The notes beneath the pieces are model-generated. The model was not told the DNA's origin. It saw nothing but the letters and a program-made list of their open reading frames with translations, and searched no databases. A DNA stretch of 64,000 nt from a virus (Duplodnaviria; Heunggongvirae; Uroviricota; Caudoviricetes): IMG/VR virus record IMGVR_UViG_2585427757_000006; one strand, given 5' to 3'. Position numbers and translations under genes: made by a program. Shown one piece after another: positions 1-59,718 of this stretch. The stretch's first letter is position 1, and each line of letters opens with the position of its first letter.

Positions 1-1830
<1,830 letters not shown>

Positions 1831-2059
1831 TGACCAATAGCGGACATTAAAAATGGCGAAAAACGGCCAATAATCTTGGCGTTGACAGTGTTACGGGGGA
1901 TAAAATCAGGAGTTGAATAAATACGAAAAAGGAGGCGACACCCCTCCTTCCCTCCCCACTTATACATACCTGGCTTCTTCGCTATACATGTTGTGTTTTA
2001 TCTGTCTCAACCTCTCTATAGGCGTTAATGCTCACTCCTTCCAGAACGTTCTATACGGC

Positions 2060-2830
2060 GACTATTTCTGTTGGTGAATTGGGTGTGTTGTTCTCTCTGT
2101 CGGTGTATGTGGTTTCGTTCGTTTTGCGGTGGTTCTTCTATGGGGTGTTCTCGTCGTTTTGGTGATTGTTCTTCTCCGTGTATGGAGTAATGGCAGGGGG
2201 GCGATTCCTTTCGTTGTTGTGTTTGAGTTGTTTGTCTGGAGTGTGTGAAAGGCTTTTGCAGTTATTCGTGTATTGGGTAATGGCATTTCCCGTGATTGTT
2301 GTGTTTCGTGTCTTTTGGGATTGAGAGAAACCTTGCGGTTACAGGCTTCGTTGGGGTTTCAGTGATTCTGGTGTTCTTCGCTGTTTGGGGAATGGCGTGT
2401 CGTGGGTATCGCGCGTATGAATGTTTTCGGATTGCCTGTGAAAGTTAGGTTGGTTGTCCGGTAGCCTGGGGAGAAGAGGTGGGTCTTTTCGGTAGCCTGG
2501 GGAGAAGAGGTGGGTCTTTTCGGTAGCCTGCCATAAAGAGGTTGGTTGTTTTTGGAAATGGCATTTGTGTTATTTAGTTGTTTTGTTATGCCTGAAAATA
2601 AGTTGTTTATATGGTTGTGTAACGCAACGGGAGCGATTTTGAGCGTGTGTTTTTGTTGGTAGTGTGTTGGGTCGTCTGTGGTGAAAATTGGACGCTGTGG
2701 CGCTGTCTGCTGCGTAGAGTTACGGGTATAAGCAGTGATGTGTGAAAACGTCAATTTTTTAGACCAAATCGGGTGAAAGCGTTGATGTTTCGTTGATCTG
2801 TTATTCAGTTGTTTTCTTGATTGTATAAAC
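2060..2830. repeat. G+T-skewed tract without credible coding potential, with degenerate ~90-115 bp periodic units
   Basis: Plus strand almost only G and T. Cores gtaatggca at 2187 and 2277, aatggcg at 2391, aatggca at 2557. The units gtgtatggagtaatggca and gtgtattgggtaatggca are clearly homologous. Only low-complexity minus-strand ORFs. Confidence 0.6.
2459..2530 (+). repeat. Perfect 31-bp tandem repeat, 2.3 copies
   Basis: cggtagcctggggagaagaggtgggtctttt at 2459-2489 and 2490-2520, then cggtagcctg at 2521-2530. Confidence 0.95.
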
Positions 2831-2963
2831 AACTATAGCTTATTGATATTTAAGGATGTGATTGCGGGTATGGAAGAAGAGTAGTGGCGATCAACGGATT
2901 CTTATAGAAAAGAATCAAATTGTGACCGCCATTATCAACTGATTGATTTGTTTACTTGTGTAG

Positions 2964-3362
2964 TCAGTTCTCGAAATGAATAGGGTCAACGTAATGCCGC
3001 TCACCGCTTTTACCATTACACAGCACTGTAACTTTCGCCTTTTCACTCCAGGCTGAGTATAGAAAGTTCCCATCAGGTTGAACATGGTAACGAGAGAAGT
3101 AAACATCGCCGACTGAGGCGTCGAACATGTTCCTATCTTTTTCACTTTGGGCAAGCGAGATGGATATCACCGAATTCCCATTTGGGGAAACGATTTTAAA
3201 TTTATTCCCTATATCCATAACAATATTGTAACCAGGTAATTGCTTGTGTGTTTCCGGATCTATTTTCATGCATCGTGGGTACACGATAGTGTTAGGCTCT
3301 TCAACTGGCGTGGCATTAGCAGAAAGCACAAAAAATATTAGTGCCAATGGTGCATATTTCAT
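2964..3362 (-). CDS. Hypothetical secreted protein (132 aa)
   Basis: N-terminal signal-like MKYAPLALIFFVLSANA. SD gaggg 6 nt upstream of the ATG at 3362. Confidence 0.6.
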   Translation of the reverse strand: MKYAPLALIFFVLSANATPVEEPNTIVYPRCMKIDPETHKQLPGYNIVMDIGNKFKIVSPNGNSVISISLAQSEKDRNMFDASVGDVYFSRYHVQPDGNFLYSAWSEKAKVTVLCNGKSGERHYVDPIHFEN

Positions 3363-3369
3363 TTATCCC

Positions 3370-3663
3370 TCACAATTTCCAATTTTCCAGACCATCGTCT
3401 ATTTCAGCGTCAGGGTGGAATTGTACCGCATCAAATCCTACATCGAGCACCTTTCGAATGTTCTTGATGGTTTGCTATGTGACACCGTAATCACGCAGCT
3501 TTTCTTCCCTCCCCTGACTCCCCCATACTCCGTTTCTGTACCCAATTGAGTCCGAGATTGTATGGTGCTCGAAACAGATATTTGGTAGACACTCAGAGTC
3601 ATGCTGTGTAACGAGGGTAGGGCTACTAACTGTCGTCTTATACAATTTGGTGAGTTTCAGCAT
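3370..3663 (-). pseudogene. Small ORF interrupted by an in-frame TAG (62 + 34 codons)
   Basis: ORF 3475..3663 ends at TAG (plus cta 3475-3477). The same frame stays open 34 more codons (QTIKNIRKVLDVGFDAVQFHPDAEIDDGLENWKL) to TGA at 3370-3372, just before the next gene's SD. Confidence 0.45.
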
Positions 3664-3905
3664 TTTACCACCCCGTTCGGAAACAACTCATTCGCCGTAG
3701 TTGATATAACCTCCCAATTAACGCCGACATCAGCGTTATGGCATTGTCTGATTTTTTGCATCACCTGTACGCATTGTTCATCAGTGAGATCTGTCCTTAC
3801 TTCAGCAATATCTTCTTTGTGCCACATAACCATGAGTAAGGGTTCGTCTTCTGGATAGTTTTTCAGTTTCTCGATGATTTCTTTTGCTGTTCCAAACATC
3901 TTCAT
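3657..3905 (-). CDS. Hypothetical protein (82 aa)
   Basis: SD aggag directly upstream of the ATG at 3905. 7-nt overlap with the downstream ORF start (3663). Preceded by the operator-like palindrome. Confidence 0.55.
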   Translation of the reverse strand: MKMFGTAKEIIEKLKNYPEDEPLLMVMWHKEDIAEVRTDLTDEQCVQVMQKIRQCHNADVGVNWEVISTTANELFPNGVVKC

Positions 3906-3910
3906 CTCCT

Positions 3911-3979
3911 AAACAATTTGTTTTCTTATATGACTTATTATCTCAATCAACAAAAGGTAGAAAACAAATTGTTTTAGAG
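3911..3979. promoter_or_regulatory. Two copies of the AAACAA-N-TTGTTT palindrome (family A)
   Basis: aaacaatttgttttcttata 3911-3930 and gaaaacaaattgttttagag 3960-3979. The first ends 5 nt before the SD of gene 3657..3905. Confidence 0.5.
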
Positions 3980-4010
3980 TTTGTTAAAGTCAGAAGGGGT
4001 TGTGTCTATA

Positions 4011-4039
4011 TGAAAATGCCCGGCGTGTTGCCGGGCATT
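4011..4039 (-). terminator. metG intrinsic terminator
   Basis: Stem aatgcccggc / gccgggcatt (4015-4024 / 4030-4039) with loop gtgtt, followed on the minus strand by tttTc; 20 nt after the metG stop. Confidence 0.7.
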
Positions 4040-4058
4040 GCGAAGAGAGGGTGTTTAA

Positions 4059-6092
4059 TTACTTAACCTGGTGGCCAGGTTTAGCACCAGCATCCGGGCT
4101 TAACAGGAAGATATCTTTCCCCCCGGGGCCAGCAGCCATTACCATGCCTTCGGAGATACCAAAGCGCATTTTACGCGGTGCCAGGTTGGCCACCATAATG
4201 GTGTGACGCCCGATCAGTGCCTGCGGATCTGGGTAGGCAGAACGAATACCGGAGAAGACATTGCGTTTTTCACCACCGAGATCCAGCGTCAGGCGAAGCA
4301 GTTTGTCAGAACCTTCTACAAACTCTGCGTTTTCAATCAGCGCCACGCGCAGGTCAACTTTGGCGAAGTCGTCAAAGGTGATAGTTTCCTGAATCGGGTC
4401 GTCAGCCAGTGGGCCAGTTACCGGTGCGGCTGTGGCTTTCACTTCTTCTTTGGATGCTTCCACCAGTGCTTCAACCTGCTTCATATCGATGCGGTTATAC
4501 AGTGCCTTGAACGGATTCACTTTATGGCCCAGCAGCGGTTGCTGGATACCATCCCAGGTCAGTTCTGTATTCAGGAATGCTTCTGCACGTTCAGTCAGTT
4601 TCGGCAGTACCGGTTTCAGGTACGTCATCAGCACGCGGAACAGGTTAATGCCCATAGAGCAAATCGCCTGCAGATCGGCATCGCGTCCTTCCTGCTTTGC
4701 CACCACCCACGGAGCCTGTTCATCAACATAGCGGTTAGCCAGGTCAGCCAGTGCCATGATTTCACGGATAGCTTTGCCAAATTCGCGGCTTTCCCATGCT
4801 TCGCCAATCACTTCAGCGGCATCAGTAAAGGTTTTGTACAGTTGCGGGTCAGCCAGTTCGCTTGCCAGCACGCCGTCAAAACGCTTGTTGATAAAGCCTG
4901 CATTACGGGAGGCCAGGTTAACCACTTTGTTAACGATATCGGCATTCACACGCTGAACGAAATCTTCCAGGTTGAGATCGATATCATCAATGCGCGAAGA
5001 GAGTTTCGCAGTGTAGTAGTAACGCAGGCTGTCGGCGTCAAAATGATTCAGCCAGGTGCTGGCTTTAATAAAGGTGCCGCGAGACTTGGACATCTTCGCG
5101 CCGTTCACCGTCACATAGCCGTGAACAAACAGGTTGGTCGGCTTGCGGAAGTTGCTGCCTTCCAGCATGGCAGGCCAGAACAGGCTGTGGAAGTAAACGA
5201 TATCTTTGCCGATGAAGTGGTACAGCTCGGCGGTGGAGTCTTTCTTCCAGTATTCGTCGAAGCTGGTAGTGTCGCCGCGTTTGTCGCACAGATTCTTGAA
5301 GGAACCCATGTAGCCAATCGGCGCGTCCAGCCAGACGTAGAAGTATTTGCCCGGTGCGTTCGGAATTTCAAAACCGAAGTAAGGTGCGTCACGGGAGATA
5401 TCCCACTGTTGCAGGCCAGATTCAAACCACTCCTGCATTTTGTTTGCCACCTGCTCCTGCAACGCACCGCTGCGGGTCCATGCCTGCAACATTTCGCTGA
5501 AAGAAGGCAGATCAAAGAAGAAGTGTTCGGAATCACGCATTACCGGTGTAGCGCCAGAAACCACTGATTTCGGCTCGATCAGTTCCGTCGGGCTGTATGT
5601 CGCGCCGCAGACTTCACAGTTATCGCCGTATTGATCCGGCGCTTTACATTTCGGGCATGTGCCTTTTACAAAACGGTCCGGCAGGAACATGCCTTTTTCC
5701 GGGTCGTACAGCTGAGAGATGGTGCGGTTTTTAATAAAACCGTTCTCTTTCAGGCGAGTATAGATAAGCTCGGACAACTGACGGTTCTCTTCGCTGTGCG
5801 TCGAGTGATAGTTGTCATAGCTGATGTTAAAGCCTGCGAAATCAGTCTGATGTTCCTGACTCATTTCGCCAATCATCTGTTCCGGTGTGATACCAAGCTG
5901 CTGTGCTTTCAGCATGATTGGCGTACCGTGGGCATCGTCGGCACAGATGAAATTAACCTCGTGGCCGCGCATTCGCTGGTAACGAACCCAGACATCAGCC
6001 TGGATGTGCTCCAGCATATGGCCGAGGTGGATTGAGCCGTTAGCGTACGGCAGCGCGCACGTCACCAGAATTTTCTTCGCGACTTGGGTCAT
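4059..6092 (-). CDS. metG: Methionyl-tRNA synthetase (677 aa from [25 protein letters not shown])
   Basis: HIGH (HLGH) and KMSKS motifs, Zn knuckle CPKCK..CEVCG. Near-identical to E. coli MetG as recalled. The track ORF has a 43-codon upstream extension; ATG taken at 6092. Confidence 0.97.
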
Positions 6093-6249
6093 AGTAGGCA
6101 TTACTTCTTTGTAGTGAAAAGGGGCTTGATAGTAACAAAATGGCCTTATGTCTGCCATGTGATAACAGCATTTCTCATAAATGATTAAATGTCGTAGCTG
6201 GAGTACACTACAAGGCGACAATTGCGCAAATTAAAATAAAGGAGACGGG

Positions 6250-7350
6250 ATGAGCGAGTCCAAATCGCCGGATGCCCTGAGAGCAATGGTAGCCGGTACG
6301 CTGGCTAATTTTCAGCACCCAACCCTGAAACACAACCTGACTACGCTTAAAGCGTTACACCATGTTGCGTTGATGGATGACACACTGCATGTCGAACTAA
6401 TCATGCCTTTCGTGTGGAATAAGCCTTTTGAAGACCTGAAAGAGCAATGTAGTGGTGATCTGCTCCGTATCACTGGCGCAAAGGCTATTGACTGGAAGCT
6501 GTCGTACAACATTGCCACGCTTAAGCGCGTCAAAAACCAACCAGGCATTAATGGCGTTAAGAACATTATCGCCGTCAGCTCAGGCAAGGGCGGCGTGGGT
6601 AAATCCTCCACGGCGGTAAACCTGGCACTGGCGTTGGCTGCTGAAGGTGCGAAAGTTGGTATTTTGGATGCCGATATCTATGGTCCATCAATTCCAACCA
6701 TGCTGGGCGCGGAAAACCAACGTCCAACCTCACCGGACGGTACTCACATGGCACCTATCATGTCTCATGGCCTGGCAACCAACTCTATTGGTTATCTGGT
6801 CACCGACGACAATGCAATGGTGTGGCGTGGACCGATGGCCAGCAAGGCGCTGATGCAGATGTTGCAGGAAACACTGTGGCCTGATCTGGACTATCTCGTT
6901 CTCGATATGCCACCGGGCACTGGTGATATTCAATTGACGCTGGCGCAGAACATTCCTGTAACTGGTGCGGTTGTGGTAACTACGCCGCAAGACATCGCGC
7001 TGATCGATGCGAAGAAAGGCATTGTGATGTTCGAAAAAGTCGAAGTGCCGGTACTGGGTATCGTTGAAAACATGAGTGTGCATATTTGCAGTAACTGCGG
7101 TCATCACGAGCCAATTTTTGGCACCGGTGGCGCACAGAAACTGGCCGAGAAATACAACACGCAGTTGTTAGGCCAAATGCCACTTCATATCTCTCTTCGT
7201 GAAGATCTGGATAACGGAACACCAACCGTTATTAGTCGTCCAGATAGTGAATTTACGGCTATTTATCGTGACCTCGCAGATCGCGTTGCTGCCCAAATGT
7301 ATTGGCAAGGTGAAGTAATACCTGGCGAAATCGCATTCCGCGCAGTGTGA
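6250..7350 (+). CDS. apbC: Fe-S cluster carrier ATPase ApbC/Mrp
   Basis: [11 protein letters not shown]-loop and the CSNCGHH motif. Collinear with E. coli Mrp as recalled; divergent from metG as in E. coli. Confidence 0.95.
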
Positions 7351-7356
7351 TAAAAA

Positions 7357-7486
7357 GGTGGTGCTTTTGCCGTTACGCACCCCCCCGTCAGTAGCTGAAC
7401 AGGAGGGACAGCTGATAGAAACAGAAGCCACTGGAGCACCTCAAAAACACCATCATACACTAAATCAGTAAGTTGGCAGCATCACC
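7357..7486 (-). mobile_element. IS1 left-end fragment (~130 bp, truncated)
   Basis: Reverse complement of IS1 IRL ggtgatgctgccaacttactgat (7486-7464) plus the insA start at 7431. ORF 7168..7431 begins [16 protein letters not shown], the InsA N-terminus, then runs into antisense apbC. Confidence 0.85.
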
Positions 7487-7597
7487 GAGCGCCAGCGGCG
7501 AACATATGAGCTTCGGAAATACTAGACATTCTTAACTCCGTTGTTTTCTAGTTGTGGTTATTTTCACAAATAAGAAAAGATAGAAAACAATTTATTT

Positions 7598-7618
7598 AAG
7601 GCCACAACTTATGGCCTT
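7598..7618. terminator. Hairpin downstream of gene 7649..8029
   Basis: aaggcca caactta tggcctt with A/T-rich flanks. Orientation and function uncertain. Confidence 0.4.
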
Positions 7619-7648
7619 TATTTATTCATGCCGAAGGATTTGTAGCGT

Positions 7649-8029
7649 CTAATTGCCGGATAAAATGGGGTGAGGTGCTTGCCAGTAGGCTCCACCGTTC
7701 CATGTGAACCCCATGCGAATAAGAGTGTTTATTGCGGCTTTGGTAGACTCCGATTCGACACTGGCTTTACGAAACTCTTGAACCTCTTTCGCCAACTTGT
7801 ATGTAATTGTGCAGGGGACGATTGCAGCCCAGCCTTTCTCATGACTGTTAATGACCATCTGGATGTGACCATCCAGAATAGGTTGATTAGGCATGTTATT
7901 GAAAATGTCTGCCTGTTTTTGAATGTGAAGAAAAAGCCTTGCCAGCGCCATTTGCTCACTACGAGACAAGGGATTATCAAGAGGGCTTTTTGCAAAAGCT
8001 GCTATACGCTGTGCATCAATGCCAAACAT
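7649..8029 (-). CDS. Hypothetical protein (126 aa)
   Basis: Long ORF whose start codon shares one nt with the stop of the upstream gene (8029). No motif recognised. Confidence 0.6.
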   Translation of the reverse strand: MFGIDAQRIAAFAKSPLDNPLSRSEQMALARLFLHIQKQADIFNNMPNQPILDGHIQMVINSHEKGWAAIVPCTITYKLAKEVQEFRKASVESESTKAAINTLIRMGFTWNGGAYWQAPHPILSGN

Positions 8030-8733
8030 CAGCGCACCTCACCATCTTTATGGCTGGAGTTAACTTCCGTCATTAAATGTCTGACGTAATCGACAAGAGA
8101 GCCGCCTGGTGGAATCTGGCATTCCTCAACTAACTGGAAGTAGATATCCGCTGCATTACGTGTATTGCTACCCGCGCATATTCTTTCTTCCCGAAGTGCA
8201 TGAAGCTCGTTGATCAAACGGTCACACTCTCCGTTACGCTGATCCACAACGGCCTCAAGCTCTGCGACGCGTTCACCTGGCGTCTTACCTTCTTTGCGTT
8301 GGATGGTAACGACGAAATCGCCAATTGCAGGGACGTTGTAATCCAGCTCAAGGTAGTTTTTGGCACCGCTGCGGACGAACTCACCCGCGAACATGGTGGC
8401 GAACATCGCAGAGGCCACTTCTCCGTTGAAAAGTGACTCCAGATCTAACGGAGTCCCGGCAGCAAGAGCCTCCTTTGCTGTATCCATTGCATCCATGAAC
8501 CGATCAAACTCACTAGCGCGCTTTTCCAGGTCTTTCCATTGCTCGCTCCAACGTTTGGCAACGAAGTCTATGAATGTTTTCGCGGATTCATCAAAATTCC
8601 CCTCAAACTTAACGATGCCTTTATCAATAATGATCTGGCCTACCGCATCCTCTGCATAACCTTTCAATGTAAACTTGAAAGGAAAATCGGAATGGCCTGT
8701 GACGTTAAAATGCTCTAACTGGAGGTTGCTCAT
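8029..8733 (-). CDS. Hypothetical protein (234 aa)
   Basis: Starts in the conserved leader (plus catgtgttttt at 8731). No motif recognised. Confidence 0.65.
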   Translation of the reverse strand: MSNLQLEHFNVTGHSDFPFKFTLKGYAEDAVGQIIIDKGIVKFEGNFDESAKTFIDFVAKRWSEQWKDLEKRASEFDRFMDAMDTAKEALAAGTPLDLESLFNGEVASAMFATMFAGEFVRSGAKNYLELDYNVPAIGDFVVTIQRKEGKTPGERVAELEAVVDQRNGECDRLINELHALREERICAGSNTRNAADIYFQLVEECQIPPGGSLVDYVRHLMTEVNSSHKDGEVR

Positions 8734-8794
8734 GTGTTTTTCTCTTATCGTTTAGTAACTACATTCTTACATAAATTAAGTAAGCATTTACCTA

Positions 8795-10480
8795 TCATTT
8801 AACGCGTTTGAAAACGTATACGCTGACTGTGATCCCTGTGTCTTCAAACTCGTTGGTAAACGACTTCCCTCTGGCATAAACGTAATTATCCATCGTCATC
8901 CAGTCCAGTATTGGCGCAGTGCCCGGCAATACTGCTACAAGACGCCCGCCGACTTTCAGATGCCCCAGCGCAGCCAGCGTGTGCTCTCTATGACGACCAA
9001 GCGAGTACGGCGGGTTCATAACGATTTTGTCGAACTGATAACCTGCGTTGTCCTCAGACCACTTTATGAAGTCGCAGCAAATCGTGTTCGTATACCCTTT
9101 TCCACGCAGGATATCAGCGAAGAGAGGTGCGATTTCTATGCAGGTAACATCTTCCAGATCGGCGTCAATATAGGCCAGAAGATCCCCACGTCCGGCTTGA
9201 GGCTCCAACAGCTTCTCACCAGGCTTCAATTCAGTGGCTCTTGCAACGTACTCAGCAATCAAGCGTGGGGTAGGGTAGAACTGGTGTGATTTTGTATCCG
9301 GTATTAAACCGGTAGCCACAATCGTATTTAGCGTATGGCCGATGTCATACGGGAACTGCCAGTGCTTTTTCTCCTGCACGCCGCCAATGAAGCTCAGTGT
9401 GCGCTCAAGCTCTTCCACCTGCGACTTCTGGAGAGCTGAATCAGAGAAGTACCATACACCTTTGTCTTTGCTCAATCGCCCGTCACGAAGCGCAGTGCGA
9501 ACCGGCACGGAGATCGTCTTCTGGATTAAACCGAACTGCTTTGGTGCCCGTGTTTTTGGCGCAGTTCGGCATGGCGCGGGGATTGCAGCAGGCATACTGT
9601 AAGCCAGCACCTCATTCAACTTCCAGGCCACGTCAGGATGTATTTCAAAGTGAACGTTGCCGTTCTTGAACATCTTCACGCGCATCAGATTTCCATCGAC
9701 GTTCATCCAGTCACCGGTCTGGCAGTCGTTTGCCCGATACGCAGCTGATAGCACCTCAGCAGTGCGGTTGATGGTAATAAATTCTTTGTGCGCGAAGAAA
9801 TGAAGCAAGACACGCAGATCGTCGATGTAGTCCTCTTTGCGATAGTTCACGCTAACGCTGTCCCGCCAGAAATCAGAAATGCAGTCAGCGATTATCAGCC
9901 GCTCGCTGAAACCATTTGTCTTATTTGTCTTGTGCACAGGACTCAGCGCCTTAAACAAGCCATACACGCGCTCAGAGAGATATTTGTGCCTGTCATTCAG
10001 CAAATTAAGCATCGTGGGTATGACCGTTTCTGCTTTGAACTCCGGTACACCAACGAACTCTTTAACCTTCATCTGGTAGCCGGTTCTGTCAGTTTTGATG
10101 ACTTCCTGTTTGCCCTCTATAAACTGCTCGCGCCACTCATCTCGACGGGAAGCTGGCATGATCAGCAAAACGTTAGTCATGTCCGTGACCTTCCTCCAGT
10201 ACTCGGCCCAAATATTCTGTTTCACCCATTCCAGATCGACTTTATCCAACCAACCTCGATTTAAACGCGAGCGATCTTCATCTGGTCGATGGTTTAGTCT
10301 CAGCAGGCGATTAATCATGTTGTGGCGTTCGTCGCCATAAACGAAGTCGTGTACCTGATACATGAAGGCGATCTCTTTCTCGCACTCGGCCACAATTTCG
10401 TGGATAACGTTCATTTCCTGACGATAATCGATAGCAGTGTTTGAGCTGGCATCGTCGATGATGGAAAGGGCTGTATTCAT
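8795..10480 (-). CDS. N6-adenine DNA methyltransferase with a large N-terminal domain of unknown function (561 aa)
   Basis: C-terminal motif I LEPQAGRGDL and motif IV VMNPPYS. The first ~370 aa carry no recognised motif. Confidence 0.8.
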   Translation of the reverse strand: MNTALSIIDDASSNTAIDYRQEMNVIHEIVAECEKEIAFMYQVHDFVYGDERHNMINRLLRLNHRPDEDRSRLNRGWLDKVDLEWVKQNIWAEYWRKVTDMTNVLLIMPASRRDEWREQFIEGKQEVIKTDRTGYQMKVKEFVGVPEFKAETVIPTMLNLLNDRHKYLSERVYGLFKALSPVHKTNKTNGFSERLIIADCISDFWRDSVSVNYRKEDYIDDLRVLLHFFAHKEFITINRTAEVLSAAYRANDCQTGDWMNVDGNLMRVKMFKNGNVHFEIHPDVAWKLNEVLAYSMPAAIPAPCRTAPKTRAPKQFGLIQKTISVPVRTALRDGRLSKDKGVWYFSDSALQKSQVEELERTLSFIGGVQEKKHWQFPYDIGHTLNTIVATGLIPDTKSHQFYPTPRLIAEYVARATELKPGEKLLEPQAGRGDLLAYIDADLEDVTCIEIAPLFADILRGKGYTNTICCDFIKWSEDNAGYQFDKIVMNPPYSLGRHREHTLAALGHLKVGGRLVAVLPGTAPILDWMTMDNYVYARGKSFTNEFEDTGITVSVYVFKRVK

Positions 10481-38181: not shown

Positions 38182-39462
38182 CTATTGCTCAACCATTTCT
38201 GGGGTGATTTTTATTTTTCCTGTCACGGCGCTGTTGATCAGGGTGGTTTTGTATTCTTTAAGCTTTTCAATCTGCGACTTTTGGATATCAATCGTGCGAT
38301 TCAGATCTGGCTCAATTCCTTCAATGAACGAAATTATTTCTTGAATTTCATCTTTTGGTGGCACTGGAACCAATACACTTGCAAGACGATCCCTTGTTAA
38401 TTTTGGCTGTGCCGCACCAGAAATATATACCGTATAGTCCAATCCGCTTAATAATTCGGCCCAGTATTTAAAACCATGAAATTTTGGCTTAATAATATGT
38501 GCATGGTTATTCACCCAATACTTTCCAGTTGCAACAAAAGCCAATGGTGTTGACTTGCTTAGCAAATTCGCGCCATCTTCAGCGATCAAGATTAAATCTT
38601 CATCAAAGATGTAGTCATCAACATAATCGATAACACCACTTGCTCCGTAATACGGATATACGCCCTGTCTCGACTCTCTCTCAACTGCGCTTATTGGAAC
38701 TCTTCTACTGTTAAGAAACTCAAACGCATATCTCAATGACATTAAGTTCCAATGCGCTGGAATCTTACCAATCCAATCCACACCGGAGTCTTTCATTGGC
38801 ACATTGGGATCAAGCCCTTGGGTCACCGCCTGTTGGATGATGATCTGCTTACGCTCTTTCAGCAGGCTAATTTGCTGCTCTTTGATCGAAATCGCTTCGT
38901 CGATTAGAGCGGTTTTCTTGTCGAGAAAATTTGCAATTAGGGACTGCTCTTCTTCTGAAGGCAGAACAAAAGGAATCACCTTCATCCGTGCTTTTGAAAG
39001 GTCCCACTGACCAATCCTTACACCATCTGATGCACTACCAAAAAACGATACATATAACTTACTGCGTATCGCCCAATTGAAAAACTCAGGATTTATTGCC
39101 TTTGTAAAATCAAAAATAAAATACGCAGGACTTACAATTCCAGTGAACTTTGATACACCGTAAGAACCCTGCCACGCTTTCATTTTATTCATTCCAAATT
39201 GACCTTTCTCAAGCTTTTTATAGCCGCTAAGATCATCTGGTATAAAATTGTGATTTGACTCTTGATTATCCACGTCTCTCTCGATAACACCTTGTTCGCG
39301 TGTTATCGAAAGTAGTGGCAATTCAGGGCAGTTTTTGACCGACACCGGAGATAGGCACGAGCCTAACTTAACCAAGTCCCAATGCTCTGGAATCTCGCCA
39401 ATCCACTCATAACCAGAGTCACTATATTGATCATACTTTAGCGTTGAGGTAATGCTTTCCAT
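38182..39462 (-). CDS. hsdS: Type I restriction enzyme S subunit (426 aa)
   Basis: Two-fold internal repeat (WEWIGEIPEHWDLVKLG / VDWIGKIPAHWNLMSLR) with conserved central and C-terminal coiled regions. Confidence 0.85.
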   Translation of the reverse strand: MESITSTLKYDQYSDSGYEWIGEIPEHWDLVKLGSCLSPVSVKNCPELPLLSITREQGVIERDVDNQESNHNFIPDDLSGYKKLEKGQFGMNKMKAWQGSYGVSKFTGIVSPAYFIFDFTKAINPEFFNWAIRSKLYVSFFGSASDGVRIGQWDLSKARMKVIPFVLPSEEEQSLIANFLDKKTALIDEAISIKEQQISLLKERKQIIIQQAVTQGLDPNVPMKDSGVDWIGKIPAHWNLMSLRYAFEFLNSRRVPISAVERESRQGVYPYYGASGVIDYVDDYIFDEDLILIAEDGANLLSKSTPLAFVATGKYWVNNHAHIIKPKFHGFKYWAELLSGLDYTVYISGAAQPKLTRDRLASVLVPVPPKDEIQEIISFIEGIEPDLNRTIDIQKSQIEKLKEYKTTLINSAVTGKIKITPEMVEQ

Positions 39463-41891
39463 TAGGCTTCTCCCTGAACTTCCGCCACTTTCACGCCTAA
39501 TATTTGTGCAATCAAACCATCAGCCTTCTGCTCTAGATTGATAATGTCAGTTGCTACTTCTTCAAGACTACGTAATGGCTTATGCAGATAGAAATACTTA
39601 TTGAAGCTGATTTCATAGCCAATTTTTACCGTATCTAGGTTTATCCATGCTTCATCGACATGAGGCTTCACTTCATCTAGGAAGTACTGGTAAATGCTTT
39701 GCTTTAATGGAACAGATTCTGTATCTCGCAGGTCTGAATTGGTCTCGTAAGTGATATACTCGCCTTTTTTACCGCCTTCTGCTGAAGGAACGGGGTAATA
39801 ACCAAAATCTGGCAAGTCAGCGACTTCACACTCATAGCGCTCCAGCAGGTCGTTTAATTTATCACCCGTTAATTTAACTACCTTTTTAACCACTTTCTTG
39901 GCGGTTTCGTCATACCAGCTCACCGCGTGAAGAATGGCATTTTTCTCAGGTGCTGAAAGCTTAATAGCATGGGCTTTTAGCGATTTATCAACTTGGGTTT
40001 TAAAGCTATTGAAGTCATCAAATTCAATGCTACCGATGTCAGCCATCAGCGTTTGTGCAGTTTCAAGCAATGCTTTTAGCGCCAGCCAGTGTTTCACATC
40101 AAGCAGTTTGGCCTTAGCCTTAGCATTGAGACTGATGTCGTTATCTTCACACCAAGAAAGAATGTCTTTCTCGATGGATTTTAAGAAGCTCTTTTTCTGA
40201 TCTGACCCGTAGCCAGTTTTTTCGTAAACACGTTCGCCGTGCTCTGCGTACACGTACTCCATCACTTCACTAAGTTGCTTATCAAAACGCAGTGGGGCTA
40301 TGGCATCTTGAGTAAACTTGGCTTTGCGGCGATCTGGGCGCTCGATAGTGACTTTGTAGTAGCCAAAATCGTCATTGCTGAATACCTTACTGGCGATGCC
40401 AACAGGATCATTGTTTGCATCCAGTGCTCTTTCAACATCCTTACACGCGAGGTAAGTATCGGTAATTTCCGTGATGTGCTCAGGCGCAAATTCGCAGTTT
40501 TTGTTACCTAAGTTCTTGCGCAACTTACGGTAGAGCAAGCTGGCATCAATTAATTGCACCTTACCTTTACGCGCCTCAGGTTTATTGTTGCTCAACACCC
40601 AAATGTAAGTGGTAATGCCAGTGTTATAGAACAGGTTATTAGGTAACTGAACGATGGCATCTAGCATGTCGTTTTCAATGATGAAGCGACGAATATTACT
40701 TTCACCACCGCCCGCATCTCCGGTAAAGAGCGATGAGCCGTTATGAACAGAGGCAATCCGGCTGCCTAATGGACTTACGCTCGGATCTTTCATCTTGTTG
40801 ACCATCTCCATTAAGAAAAGCAGCTGGCCATCACTCGAACGTGGCGTGGCATCCACCACTTCGAGATTTCCCCAATAGTCTTTCAGGCTAACCTTAAAAC
40901 GCGGGTCAATCACATCACTGCCGTCTTTAATGTACTTCTGTTCAGACGCCCAACTCTTACCGTATGGCGGGGTAGACAACATAAAGTCAAAGCGTGAAGC
41001 CGCAAACTCGTCGGTAGACAAGGTTGAGCCTACCTTGATGTTCTCAGGGTTGTTACCTTTGATCATCATGTCCGATTTACAAATCGCGTAGGTCTCGTCA
41101 TTGATCTCTTTGCCGTAAAGGTAAATATCTCGGCTGTCGTTCGGGTATTTCTCTTCAATGAAGTTTTGAGATTCAGTGAGCATACCACCGCTACCACACG
41201 CAGGGTCGTAAACGGTCATGGTCAATGGTAGCTGCTCTTTCACTGGGTCAAAAACCAAGTGTGTCATCAGCTCAATCACTTCCCTAGGTGTAAAGTGCTC
41301 ACCGGCTTCTTCGTTATTCTCCTCGTTGAACTTACGGATCAACTCTTCGAACACGTACCCCATACCCAGGTTAGTAAGGGCTGGCATCTTGTTGCCATCT
41401 GGGTCTTCGATCGTTTCATGAGTTAAGTTGATGTAAGGGGAAACAAACTTTTCGACGACATCAAGAAGGACTTGCTTTGAGGCCATGTGACGAATTTGCG
41501 ACTTGAGGTTAAAGCATTCAATGATTTCTTTAACATTATCGCTAAAGCTAAGCAGGTACTCTTCAAAGTTGGCGAGTAATATCTGTTGGTTATTCGTTGC
41601 GGTGTTGAACAGGGATTTCAGGGTCCATTTAGATGTATTGTAAAAAACATAACCACTAGCCGCCTTCAATGGTTCATCATCAAGCTCCGTGGCTTGCATC
41701 TCTTCTTTTTGGAACTTGACCTCTTCAAGCACGGCTTCTTTGGTGGGTTCAAGTAACGTATCTAAACGTCGTAATACCACCATAGGTAAAATCACATCGC
41801 GGTACTTACCGCGAACGTACACATCACGTAAACAGTCGTCGGCAATGTTCCATATAAATGAGATGAGCTTGTTATGTACACTATGATCCAT
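39462..41891 (-). CDS. hsdM: Type I restriction enzyme M subunit (809 aa from MDHSVHNKL)
   Basis: DPACGSGGML (motif I), a motif IV variant STPPYG (canonical NPPF/NPPY), and a long C-terminal extension. ATG at 41891 has SD aggaaa; the track start at 41927 is TTG. Confidence 0.9.
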   Translation of the reverse strand: MDHSVHNKLISFIWNIADDCLRDVYVRGKYRDVILPMVVLRRLDTLLEPTKEAVLEEVKFQKEEMQATELDDEPLKAASGYVFYNTSKWTLKSLFNTATNNQQILLANFEEYLLSFSDNVKEIIECFNLKSQIRHMASKQVLLDVVEKFVSPYINLTHETIEDPDGNKMPALTNLGMGYVFEELIRKFNEENNEEAGEHFTPREVIELMTHLVFDPVKEQLPLTMTVYDPACGSGGMLTESQNFIEEKYPNDSRDIYLYGKEINDETYAICKSDMMIKGNNPENIKVGSTLSTDEFAASRFDFMLSTPPYGKSWASEQKYIKDGSDVIDPRFKVSLKDYWGNLEVVDATPRSSDGQLLFLMEMVNKMKDPSVSPLGSRIASVHNGSSLFTGDAGGGESNIRRFIIENDMLDAIVQLPNNLFYNTGITTYIWVLSNNKPEARKGKVQLIDASLLYRKLRKNLGNKNCEFAPEHITEITDTYLACKDVERALDANNDPVGIASKVFSNDDFGYYKVTIERPDRRKAKFTQDAIAPLRFDKQLSEVMEYVYAEHGERVYEKTGYGSDQKKSFLKSIEKDILSWCEDNDISLNAKAKAKLLDVKHWLALKALLETAQTLMADIGSIEFDDFNSFKTQVDKSLKAHAIKLSAPEKNAILHAVSWYDETAKKVVKKVVKLTGDKLNDLLERYECEVADLPDFGYYPVPSAEGGKKGEYITYETNSDLRDTESVPLKQSIYQYFLDEVKPHVDEAWINLDTVKIGYEISFNKYFYLHKPLRSLEEVATDIINLEQKADGLIAQILGVKVAEVQGEA

Positions 41892-57900: not shown

Positions 57901-58073
57901 AACTTAACAAATACCTTTATAAATATTGATTCGAACATATCAGACTATACTACAAACAGATTTTTTTGATAAGTATGTAGTAACTTATTGATTGACTAGT
58001 AAACAATTGAAGTGATTACGACAATAGATTACAGTAAGGATTGCCTTGAAATGTACATTTTATAGAGGTTTTA

Positions 58074-58982
58074 ATGATTGGTAAGTTGTCTGATTCTTTG
58101 ATTGAAAATAAATACAACGAATTTAGAGAAGAAATATCTTTACTTTTTGACTATTTAAATCAGATAAATGATACAACAAAGAAAAATATAAAACGTCTTC
58201 TTAAAGAAGTGGAGTATGCACAAAATCCAGATACTATTATTAATATTAATGAAACTATTAAGATTAAGTGTGGCACAACGTTAGCTCGCCATTTATGTTC
58301 AAACCCATATACAGGTTCAACATTAGAGATAGGTAACAGCGCCATTGATTTAGAAGAAAAGATAAGATTGTGTAATACTTTGAAAAATAAACAATATCAG
58401 TGGGTTATTACTGAAGCCTATGAGTTACTGGAAGACTATATTGAGGCAATATATGTCTATACTGTATGTGTTCGAAATGATTTATGGTCCTCAAGTGATT
58501 TTGGTAAGGTTGAAGATGATGAAATTGGGAAAAGGGAAGTTTATTACAGATTATTAAAAGCAAAAAGTAACCCATCGAAAAAAATAACTAAAATTTTCAG
58601 AAATAAAATACCTGGCTTCAAAGAGATAGAAACAAACAACAAGATTGGCAAAAACTATCGCTTTAACATCAAGCTAATTGAACTACTAAGACATACAATA
58701 GTACACAATAGTGGACGATTCAATGATACAGAAAAATTTATAAATAAGGTTTTAGATGAATCTGAAATAAACGGTAAGAAAAGAGTTATTGGAGAAAGAG
58801 CTGTTAGAAGTTACATTACTAAAGTGCAAGAAGATGATATTGTGATGCTCTTAGAAAGACCATCTGAAATTTTAGGTTCTTTTGGTGGGTATTTTAACAG
58901 AGCAAAATTTTTACTAAGTGATATTTTAGAATACTCACTAATCATTAAAGAAGAACTAAAATCATATCTAGGCAATCATTAA
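58074..58982 (+). CDS. Low-GC hypothetical protein with a HEPN-type Rx4H motif (302 aa)
   Basis: SD agagg at 58064-58068. LIELLRHTIVHNSGRF gives R-HTIV-H. Composition (by eye below ~30% GC) is much lower than the neighbours. Confidence 0.6.
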   Translation: MIGKLSDSLIENKYNEFREEISLLFDYLNQINDTTKKNIKRLLKEVEYAQNPDTIININETIKIKCGTTLARHLCSNPYTGSTLEIGNSAIDLEEKIRLCNTLKNKQYQWVITEAYELLEDYIEAIYVYTVCVRNDLWSSSDFGKVEDDEIGKREVYYRLLKAKSNPSKKITKIFRNKIPGFKEIETNNKIGKNYRFNIKLIELLRHTIVHNSGRFNDTEKFINKVLDESEINGKKRVIGERAVRSYITKVQEDDIVMLLERPSEILGSFGGYFNRAKFLLSDILEYSLIIKEELKSYLGNH

Positions 58983-58986
58983 CAAA

Positions 58987-59013
58987 AAAGGGGCCGAAGC
59001 CCCTTTGGATTTT
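58987..59013 (+). terminator. Strong intrinsic terminator after the HEPN-motif gene
   Basis: aaaggggc cgaa gccccttt, then ggatttt. Confidence 0.8.
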
Positions 59014-59160: not shown

Positions 59161-59247
59161 TGGCGGAGAGTAATGGAATCGAACCATCATCGCTTGCGCA
59201 ATGGGACGGTTTTCAAGACCGCTTGAGCACCATGCTCCCTACTCTCC
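59161..59247 (-). tRNA. tRNA-Ser (anticodon UGA), class II, CCA encoded
   Basis: Hand fold: acceptor ggagagt/actctcc, anticodon arm gcggt-cttgaaa-accgt, variable arm with a gcaa tetraloop, T arm gatgg-ttcgatt-ccatt. Confidence 0.85.
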
Positions 59248-59249
59248 GG

Positions 59250-59399
59250 CCGTTGTGGTGGCCGGTACTGAATCTCCGGCATACGGTGCAGCCAATTAGG
59301 ACTACGGACGATCACCGCTCGCGAAAGGGAAGATTTGCGGCCGCATTTCCCTAACATCCAAGAAAGCTATCGCATCAGTCTGCGAATCCACCACAACGG
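59250..59399. other. 150-nt segment closed by a 12-bp perfect stem between tRNA-Ser and tRNA-Thr (candidate small RNA)
   Basis: ccgttgtggtgg 59250-59261 pairs with ccaccacaacgg 59388-59399. Internal hairpin agggaa..gcggccgc..ttccct. Confidence 0.3.
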
Positions 59400-59471
59400 T
59401 AAGATCACTACCTTTCGACCAGTCATTGTGCACATGAACGACGATTAACCGTAATGATCTTATCGTTGTAT

Positions 59472-59547
59472 TGGTGCCGGTTAGCGGACTCGAACCGCTG
59501 ACATCCTGCTTACAAGGCAGGCGCTCTACCAACTGAGCTAAACCGGC
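59472..59547 (-). tRNA. tRNA-Thr (anticodon UGU), CCA encoded
   Basis: Canonical cloverleaf: gccggtt ta gctc agttggta gagc g cctgc cttgtaa gcagg atgtc agcgg ttcgagt ccgct aaccggc a cca. Confidence 0.92.
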
Positions 59548-59551
59548 AATT

Positions 59552-59638
59552 TGGTGGGGAGTGATGGAGTCGAACCACCCGAGTCGCAATGACAGTAGAT
59601 TTACAGTCTACCCCGCTGCCCCTACGGACTAACTCCCC
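59552..59638 (-). tRNA. tRNA-Tyr (anticodon GUA), class II, CCA encoded
   Basis: Acceptor ggggagt/actcccc, anticodon arm gtaga-ctgtaaa-tctac, variable stem gtc/gac, T arm ggtgg-ttcgact-ccatc. The D arm is slightly non-canonical. Confidence 0.8.
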
Positions 59639-59643
59639 TAAAT

Positions 59644-59718
59644 TGGCGATGGTGGGTGGATTCGAACCACCGACCAGTTGGTTAACAGCCAACTGCTCTA
59701 CCGCTGAGCTACACCATC
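59644..59718 (-). tRNA. tRNA-Asn (anticodon GUU), CCA encoded
   Basis: Canonical cloverleaf: gatggtg ta gctc agcggta gagc a gttgg ctgttaa ccaac tggtc ggtgg ttcgaat ccacc caccatc g cca. Confidence 0.92.

Follow-up and report, generated by a model that had tools for sequence, protein, structure and literature searches.

A chromosomal-type metG-apbC pair on an SSU5-type phage-plasmid of Escherichia coli and the late IS1 scar beside it

How does a pair of housekeeping genes come to stand within phage-type DNA? The question is raised by a stretch of 64,000 nucleotides (IMG/VR record IMGVR_UViG_2585427757_000006, Caudoviricetes; the whole stretch is called the window below), in which metG, the gene for methionyl-tRNA synthetase (MetRS), and apbC (mrp), the gene for an iron-sulfur (Fe-S) cluster carrier ATPase, lie between flanks of a different type and are followed by a stump of the insertion sequence (IS) IS1. 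A preliminary description of the window had offered two answers: about 3.5 kb of chromosome was captured into the element by an IS1-mediated event, or the element is integrated or rearranged next to apbC. Our analysis suggests another answer, namely that the window belongs to a phage-plasmid whose ancestor acquired the apbC-metG unit, that both genes have since been held under purifying selection with conversion of metG by host alleles, and that IS1 left its scar later. We put the probability of this reading as a whole at roughly 0.85.

We compared the window with complete plasmids and phage genomes. From 1888 to 64000, it is collinear with the circular 113-kb plasmid pM160133_p3 (NZ_CP022167.1) at 99.1-99.5% identity, and the common stretch includes the RepB initiator, nrdAB, thyA, dfrA51, recA, dnaE and four tRNA genes. 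In the record of pM160133_p3, this initiator gene, of the RepB family, crosses the origin, which corresponds to about 30.3 kb in the window, so that a plasmid replication module is present on the same molecule. The circular relatives of the window are plasmids of 106-114 kb, and the phage genomes Cyrano, CMS-2020a and PhiR41_1 match it at 74% coverage, and SSU5 in part. With a backbone collinear with both circular plasmids and SSU5-type phage genomes, the window reads as an extrachromosomal SSU5-type phage-plasmid of E. coli of about 110 kb, in the pLF82/Cyrano-pECOH89 family, which addresses the replicon context that the preliminary description had wished to see determined. Virions of Cyrano (pLF82) have been demonstrated by quantitative PCR and electron microscopy, together with a plasmid copy number of 5.5; no sensitive host proving its infectivity was found (PMC9928086). 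Four SSU5/pHCM2-like elements, pLF82 (phage Cyrano, OV696614 / NC_011917), pECOH89 (NC_023916), pM160133_p3 and the STEC388 plasmid (NZ_CP041426), share the backbone of the window and carry the metG-apbC block at the identical site with 96-100% identity over the block, NZ_CP041426 being 100.0% identical over 4059-7350. An assembly chimera was rejected, since complete plasmids and phage genomes of independent origin have identical joints.

Both genes of the block are full length and of the housekeeping type. metG (4059-6092, minus strand) encodes a methionine--tRNA ligase of 677 amino acids, which scored 1019.8 bits against the NF001100 equivalog model (cut-off 587) over residues 4-677 and 163 bits against TIGR00399 (cut-off 116.65) over residues 543-677, the C-terminal tRNA-binding domain. 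The 366-residue product of apbC (6250-7350, plus strand) scored 759.3 bits against the NF008669 equivalog model (cut-off 348) over residues 2-366; the annotation of the Cyrano gene as 'MinD' corresponds to a weaker paralogue match. As had been noticed from the sequence, the pair is higher in GC than both flanks (metG 52.5% and apbC 50.5%, against 40.9% on the left, 45.3% on the right and 45.5% in the backbone). The 157-bp divergent intergenic region (6093-6249) is of the chromosomal type by alignment and sliding identity, as had also been proposed, but it can be called native only in part: conservation with E. coli is limited to the metG-proximal 50 bp or so and the apbC ribosome-binding site, and the middle has diverged, with about 59% identity to E. 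coli in the sliding window that spans it and Citrobacter as the most similar sequence. A consensus scan found no convincing sigma-70 site in 6093-6249, and a laxer scan gave 8-of-12 matches at best.

The borders of the block are sharp. Judged against K-12 and the 80 enterobacterial matches listed, homology with the chromosome is confined to the region from 4058 to about 7346-7351, that is, from stop codon to stop codon. To the left lie a backbone neighbour, the DUF1380-family gene (3657-3905, minus strand; an open reading frame, annotated as DUF1380 in pM160133_p3), and its upstream regulatory region (3906-3979, minus strand), which contains two perfect palindromes and forms the left edge of the inserted block. 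This side is backbone, as SSU5 genes 105/104, with the region upstream of them, match 3418-3977 at 75% identity, and 3906-3979 is conserved in all phage-plasmids compared and homologous at the same position in SSU5. Between it and metG is a block-specific spacer (3980-4058, minus strand) with the intrinsic terminator of metG, a 10-bp stem at about 4015-4039 followed by UUUUCAU (predicted fold -19.1 kcal/mol, z -6.2). The spacer is conserved in every phage-plasmid compared, and no homologue of its 79 bp was found among the 81 chromosomal loci compared (K-12 and the 80 matches); the hairpin is homologous neither to the E. coli metG terminator nor to any sequence of these loci, contrary to the earlier view that metG keeps its native terminator. 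On the right, beyond the IS1 stump, the backbone continues with an intergenic region (7530-7648; 88% identical to SSU5), which holds a degenerate palindrome at 7583-7599 and a hairpin at 7598-7618, and with the right neighbour of the block, an Eaa-like gene (7649-8029, minus strand; an open reading frame, named after the Cyrano annotation). Both flanks are thus element DNA around a chromosomal-type segment captured into a mobile element with an extra, mobile MetRS, and this part of the preliminary description was borne out. Its proposal to look for contiguous flanks in related elements received a qualified yes, as the SSU5 homologues of 3418-3977 and 7487-7628 lie 2.6 kb apart and the interval is filled with other accessory genes, without metG.

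The block is widespread in one branch of these elements. When 3880-7356 was compared with PLSDB, 202 plasmids matched over at least 80% of its length (191 from Escherichia and 6 from Shigella), mostly at 95-99% identity; nearly all are non-mobilisable and of about 110 kb, and the 202 include a few chromosome-sized records filed as plasmids. A backbone marker, the DUF4942 gene, was found in 205 Escherichia and 6 Shigella plasmids, and roughly nine in ten of the SSU5-like elements in these two genera carry the block. The marker is also present in about 350 plasmids from Klebsiella, Enterobacter, Salmonella, Citrobacter, Cronobacter and other genera, most of them without the block; outside Escherichia and Shigella, the block was found in only 11 PLSDB records (5 Klebsiella, 5 Salmonella and 1 Providencia), at least one of which is chromosome-sized. 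SSU5 itself (NC_018843) has no metG-apbC. In 5,426 complete E. coli genomes, 4059-7350 was located at 5,430 places on chromosomes, or about one for each genome, and at 223 places on plasmids, and about 215 plasmid records have the block at 95% identity or more. LF82, the host of Cyrano, retains its own chromosomal metG-apbC pair, 89.9% identical to the block. The pair on the element adds to the chromosomal copy of the host and does not replace it, and a second metG-apbC copy is a near-universal trait of the Escherichia branch of SSU5-like phage-plasmids. A mobile extra MetRS, which had been expected to be unusual, is lineage-wide.

At the same spot, directly after apbC, three related phage-plasmids (NZ_CP146383 from E. 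marmotae, NZ_CP072690 and NZ_CP148383) have der, the gene for a ribosome-biogenesis GTPase, about 91% identical to the chromosomal der of E. coli; in NZ_CP146383 it lies at 7730-9202 of the compared region. The metG-apbC hotspot has thus captured translation-related housekeeping genes twice.

What, then, is the IS1 sequence beside apbC? At 7357-7486 (minus strand) lie 130 nucleotides that are 98.5% identical to an end of the phage P1 IS1 in reverse orientation, with the annotated terminal inverted repeat, which ends at 7486, and the first 25 or so codons of insA. The position and orientation of this end, the 6-bp gap after the apbC stop and the readable InsA residues were all described correctly before; the insA start at 7431, however, is GTG and not ATG. 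Only nucleotides 1 to about 130 of the 768-bp element remain and the rest is replaced by the 3' flank of apbC, leaving a dead remnant, and the RefSeq annotation of pM160133_p3 names the same stump a partial IS1 transposase. On the outer side, the terminal repeat immediately adjoins the first 14 codons (MSSISEAHMFAAGA; 7487-7529, minus strand) of a gene for an HD-domain small alarmone hydrolase, which is truncated by IS1. Their product is identical to the N-terminus of the pECOH89 HD protein. That protein matches the RelA/SpoT hydrolase domain and has 87% identity to SSU5_099, a small alarmone hydrolase that has been shown to neutralise toxSAS toxins (PMC7229694). On the inner side, what remains of the apbC terminator (7351-7364) is TAAAAA followed by the left arm GGTGGTGC, and the 8-bp microhomology joint with IS1 lies in this stretch: 7357-7364 is shared by both, so that the junction is ambiguous by 8 bp, and IS1 reads ...CCGGCGGTGCTTTTGCC... 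where the window reads TAAAAAGGTGGTGCTTTTGCC. In Cyrano, pECOH89 and the E. albertii plasmid, apbC is followed by TAAAAA and the hairpin GG(C/T)GGTGC-AAT-GCACC(G/A)CC (predicted fold -17.5 kcal/mol for the intact hairpin of Cyrano), then by a HumD-like S24 peptidase gene and several small genes and, in pECOH89, by the HD-domain gene. The IS1 junction (query 7250-7600) was found in only 7 PLSDB plasmids, pM160133_p3 and six others.

The simplest history reconstructed from these sequences has two steps. In a small sublineage including the window, IS1 would have inserted into the alarmone-hydrolase gene after codon 14; a deletion between the 8-mer GGYGGTGC in the interior of IS1 and the same 8-mer in the stem of the apbC terminator would then have taken out some 640 bp of IS1 together with the genes for the hydrolase and the HumD-like protein and the genes around them, leaving the 130-bp stump against apbC. 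Measured against Cyrano, the loss comes to about 3.9 kb, and against pECOH89 to 5.6 kb; apbC would have lost its terminator as a side effect. The authentic terminal repeat and the 5' end of insA are features shared with IS1-associated deletions. A classical IS1 adjacent deletion, however, starts exactly at the IS end and leaves the IS whole, whereas the IS1 of the window is itself cut short within its own sequence, at an 8-bp microhomology; this speaks for illegitimate recombination and not for transposase action. The sublineage lacks the SSU5-type small alarmone hydrolase, the HumD-like S24 peptidase and several Ea22/Eae-like genes (compared with pECOH89, region 495-6109), and may therefore differ from its relatives in sensitivity to toxSAS defence and in SOS mutagenesis.

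With this scar in view, the two earlier answers can be weighed. Under the first, IS1 would have mobilised about 3.5 kb of chromosome into the element, through a composite transposon, one-ended transposition or cointegrate resolution, and the stump would be what remains of the capturing IS. The IS1 end does abut apbC, merely 6 bp past its stop, and IS1 forms cointegrates and adjacent deletions. However, the junction occurs in just 7 of about 202 block-bearing plasmids, the other 195 or so having the same left boundary without it; Cyrano, pECOH89 and the E. albertii and E. marmotae plasmids have the block and an intact apbC terminator but no IS1; and the left boundary has no IS sequence, so that the pair is not bracketed. 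The outer IS1 end, moreover, points outward from the block and breaks up a gene of the backbone, and the inner end is the microhomology joint. The ages are also very different, as the IS1 is 98.5% identical to that of P1 whereas apbC is 18% diverged from E. coli. We regard capture by IS1 as extremely improbable; the stump is a late scar in a small sublineage and not the capture vehicle. To the second, that the element is integrated in or rearranged beside the chromosomal metG-apbC and the pair is the host's own copy, we give almost no credence. The gene order and the divergent intergenic region, which are chromosomal in type, would agree with it, but both flanks are phage-plasmid backbone, collinear through RepB with circular plasmids of 106-114 kb, the yeh genes that stand beside the pair in K-12 are absent, identity to E. 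coli is 82% in apbC and about 59% in the intergenic region, and hosts such as LF82 retain a chromosomal copy of their own at about 90% identity. The claim of IS1-mediated capture or integration is thus explained away.

The acquisition by an ancestor that we prefer agrees with the substitution patterns of the two genes. Among six phage-plasmid alleles (the window, pM160133_p3, Cyrano, pECOH89 and the E. albertii and E. marmotae plasmids), metG has up to 133 nucleotide differences and at most 6 amino acid changes, with a ratio of nonsynonymous to synonymous substitution rates (dN/dS) of 0.00-0.02, and apbC has up to 45 nucleotide differences and 0 amino acid changes (dN/dS about 0). The ApbC protein is identical in the five other phage-plasmids, one RefSeq protein accession covering four of them. 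Both genes have therefore been under strong purifying selection while on the element. Compared with K-12, metG has 94.2% nucleotide identity, a synonymous divergence (dS) of 0.28 and 8 amino acid differences in 677, whereas apbC has 82.4% nucleotide identity, a dS of 1.55 and 94.8% amino acid identity, and ApbC is equidistant from Escherichia, Salmonella and Citrobacter. The informative sites show a sharp break near the metG start (maximum chi-square 71-204, a value reached in none of 500 permutations): chromosome-like and phage-plasmid-like sites are interleaved in metG, nearly all sites of apbC are phage-plasmid-specific, and the pECOH89 metG contains a tract of about 1.3 kb that is almost purely K-12-like. 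These patterns indicate that chromosome-like sequence has replaced patches of metG on several occasions, though not of apbC, and repeated gene conversion by host alleles is the best reading of the mosaicism; apbC is too diverged for recombination with the host. In our reading, a forebear of the branch adapted to Escherichia took up a chromosomal apbC-metG unit, stop to stop with its divergent intergenic region, from an enterobacterium about as distant from E. coli as Salmonella or Citrobacter. The unit came to lie within the leftward early gene cluster, in a variable accessory region that has the DUF1380 gene on one side and the HumD/Ea22/HD-hydrolase genes on the other, and nearly all descendants have retained it.

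Several points weigh against this history or limit it. The estimate of selection comes from six phage-plasmid alleles only. A MetRS-based, species-level genome scan covering at least 80 enterobacterial loci did not find the donor: the best chromosomal apbC among the matches listed had 82.6% nucleotide identity, and neither the 79 bp downstream of metG nor the Cyrano-type apbC terminator had a match among the loci listed. A search of 5.8 billion proteins for ApbC gave only relatives of 94-95% outside the element's own cluster, and an ancient capture and an unsampled enteric donor are indistinguishable from these data. The order of insertion and deletion at IS1 is simply the most economical way to read the scar. 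Finally, the near-silence of metG in LF82 lysogens, described next, argues against a role of gene dosage in the lysogen.

Why, then, does the element keep the pair? The expression data for Cyrano in LF82, from which alone the comparison with morons can be made, separate the two genes (PMC9928086, Table 1 and S1 Table). In lysogens, apbC (CYRAN_99) is 9-fold above the local background and is listed as a moron, whereas MetRS (CYRAN_100) has about 16 normalised counts against a floor of 5 and a median of about 10, and its log2 values in LB, medium and macrophages are 2.7-4.2, the floor being 2.32. The HumD-like gene beside apbC rises from a log2 of about 7 in LB to about 12 in macrophage-grown bacteria, apbC being flat and metG at the floor; these divergent responses of Cyrano genes 98-100 suggest that the three neighbours are regulated independently. 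The MetRS should have aminoacylation activity, judging from its 99% identity to the K-12 enzyme and the dN/dS of at most 0.02. It differs from K-12 at positions 112, 151, 275, 276, 319, 442, 538 and 554, all conservatively and none at a residue that we take to be catalytic, and the Mup exception models score it far below their cut-offs. An inhibitor-resistant variant was rejected in view of these 8 conservative differences in 677 and the match to the housekeeping equivalog model; the tolerance to MetRS inhibitors that had been suggested could thus act through dosage only.

We tentatively favour an auxiliary supply, acting mainly outside quiet lysogeny, at somewhat less than even odds. In this proposal, the element would provide its own canonical MetRS and ApbC alongside its tRNAs, ribonucleotide reductase, dihydrofolate reductase, ThyA, RecA and DnaE, which would lessen the dependence of replication and of the lytic programme on the host; apbC would be expressed in lysogens, and metG presumably used after induction or on infection. 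The main rival is a benefit to the lysogen, at least for apbC, in which the pair is lysogenic-conversion (moron) cargo and a constitutively higher dose of MetRS and ApbC, at about 5 plasmid copies, would help the cell, for example with the charging of methionine, with lag or persistence behaviour, with the repair of Fe-S clusters under stress or with MetRS-inhibitor tolerance. The 9-fold expression of apbC over the prophage background and the copy number of 5.5 (PMC9928086) agree with it, as do the strong purifying selection, the block's own (putative) intergenic promoter region and metG alleles as known persistence determinants (PMC11004401); but element metG is near the detection floor in every LF82 condition reported, and an enzyme 99% identical to that of the host is not a resistant variant. 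We consider this rival doubtful. A joint reading, which we think unlikely, makes MetRS and ApbC (with Der in some relatives) a translation and Fe-S supply module that is turned on in lytic growth or entry into a new host and shares its accessory region with the anti-toxSAS hydrolase, and metG in addition a recombination portal, its 2 kb at 94-100% identity to host metG being a standing site of recombination between phage-plasmid and chromosome. Alleles could be exchanged through such a portal, with transient integration or the mobilisation of chromosomal DNA as a further possibility. Quite unlikely in our view is a counter-defence or translation-protection kit, which would keep Met-tRNA charging and Fe-S supply going when abortive-infection toxins or shut-off strike translation. 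The accessory region is shared with the SSU5-type alarmone hydrolase that neutralises toxSAS toxins (PMC7229694), the element has four tRNA genes, and der was added at the same spot in three relatives. This is, however, guilt by association; a protein-directed toxin would strike the element's MetRS as readily as the host enzyme, to which it is 99% identical, and the window sublineage lost the hydrolase and kept metG-apbC, which are therefore not obligately coupled. That chance or linkage keeps the pair, as a neutral passenger without any function on the element, would fit the scant transcription of metG in lysogens, but is very improbable: the pair is kept in about nine of ten Escherichia-lineage elements despite highly variable surroundings, the deletion in the window lineage stopped exactly at the apbC terminator, and the substitution pattern (no amino acid change in apbC for up to 45 nucleotide differences, and a metG dN/dS of at most 0.02) contradicts it.

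Other features of the window were also recorded. The palindromes that had been reported on both flanks of the block are exact only on the left, where AAACAANNTGTTT occurs at 3911-3923 and 3962-3974, and the right side has just the degenerate copy at 7583-7599. The longer 17-bp form, GAAAACAANTTGTTTTC, has about 10 copies in the window against 0.8 expected (at 2594, 3909, 3960, 7583, 10491, 11205, 11934, 22154, 48574 and 54611), most of them 4-55 nucleotides upstream of minus-strand start codons, and it looks like the putative operator of an element-encoded dimeric regulator of early genes. The palindromes were rejected as an insertion signature because the motif recurs along the backbone upstream of many minus-strand genes. 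The first 1,887 nucleotides (1-1887) are the right-hand 1.9 kb of ISEc62, of the IS21 family, with istA and istB, and copies on unrelated plasmids match them at 100% identity. In the related phage-plasmids listed, this site has no IS, so that the insertion is private to the element of the window. Next to it, 2040-2700 is gene-less, G/T-rich and strongly strand-asymmetric (G 223, T 259, A 95, C 84; GC skew +0.37) and contains a 31-bp tandem repeat at 2459-2546. Its counterpart in pM160133_p3 is unannotated; the stretch might serve as an origin or a packaging site, or give rise to a non-coding RNA. The four tRNA genes (Ser-TGA, Thr-TGT, Tyr-GTA and Asn-GTT) lie at 59161-59718, beside a 1-kb stretch (58001-59000) with a GC content of only 29.6%. 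The sole long alignment gap against pM160133_p3, at 38287-39502, falls in the region of the specificity (S) subunit of a type I restriction-modification system, whose target specificity probably differs between the two elements.

The arrangement is already annotated in hundreds of public records and is not new as a feature. No paper discussing the metG-apbC cargo of SSU5-like phage-plasmids was found in the literature searched, which included the full texts of phage-plasmid surveys, and the data on conservation, selection and mosaicism are a small addition to the existing record. In about 4% of complete E. coli genomes, an essential translation enzyme and an Fe-S carrier are each encoded a second time, on a virus. 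Selection has kept the pair in almost every member of the Escherichia branch, and the phage-plasmid family to which this branch belongs also spreads CTX-M-15. The patchy metG alleles are a record of recombination between phage-plasmid and host chromosome, and a second metG can confuse typing schemes and read-mapping that assume a single copy. Cyrano in LF82 and PhiR41_1 (record host E. coli K-12) provide handles on why a temperate phage keeps a host-identical synthetase.

Among known systems, the prototype is Salmonella phage SSU5 (NC_018843), which has homologous flanks, namely the DUF1380 gene with its palindromic upstream region, the start of the HD hydrolase gene, and the Eaa and DUF4942 genes. 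It differs in that the interval is filled with YdfZ, LprI and other accessory genes instead of metG and apbC. Cyrano and pECOH89 differ from the window in retaining the apbC terminator and the genes from the HumD-like gene to the HD hydrolase. Translation-related auxiliary genes are known from giant viruses. MupA and MupB, plasmid-borne second isoleucyl-tRNA synthetases, confer antibiotic resistance and are divergent and inhibitor-insensitive; like them, the MetRS of the window is an extra synthetase copy on a mobile replicon, but it is of the canonical housekeeping type. Among phages, such genes include tRNA genes and, in huge phages, aminoacyl-tRNA synthetases (PMC7162821). As in huge phages and giant viruses, a core translation enzyme is here borne by a virus, with virus-borne tRNAs on the same element, and is kept under selection; unlike in them, the element is a temperate phage-plasmid of about 110 kb, the enzyme is 99% identical to that of the host, and its gene keeps recombining with the host allele.

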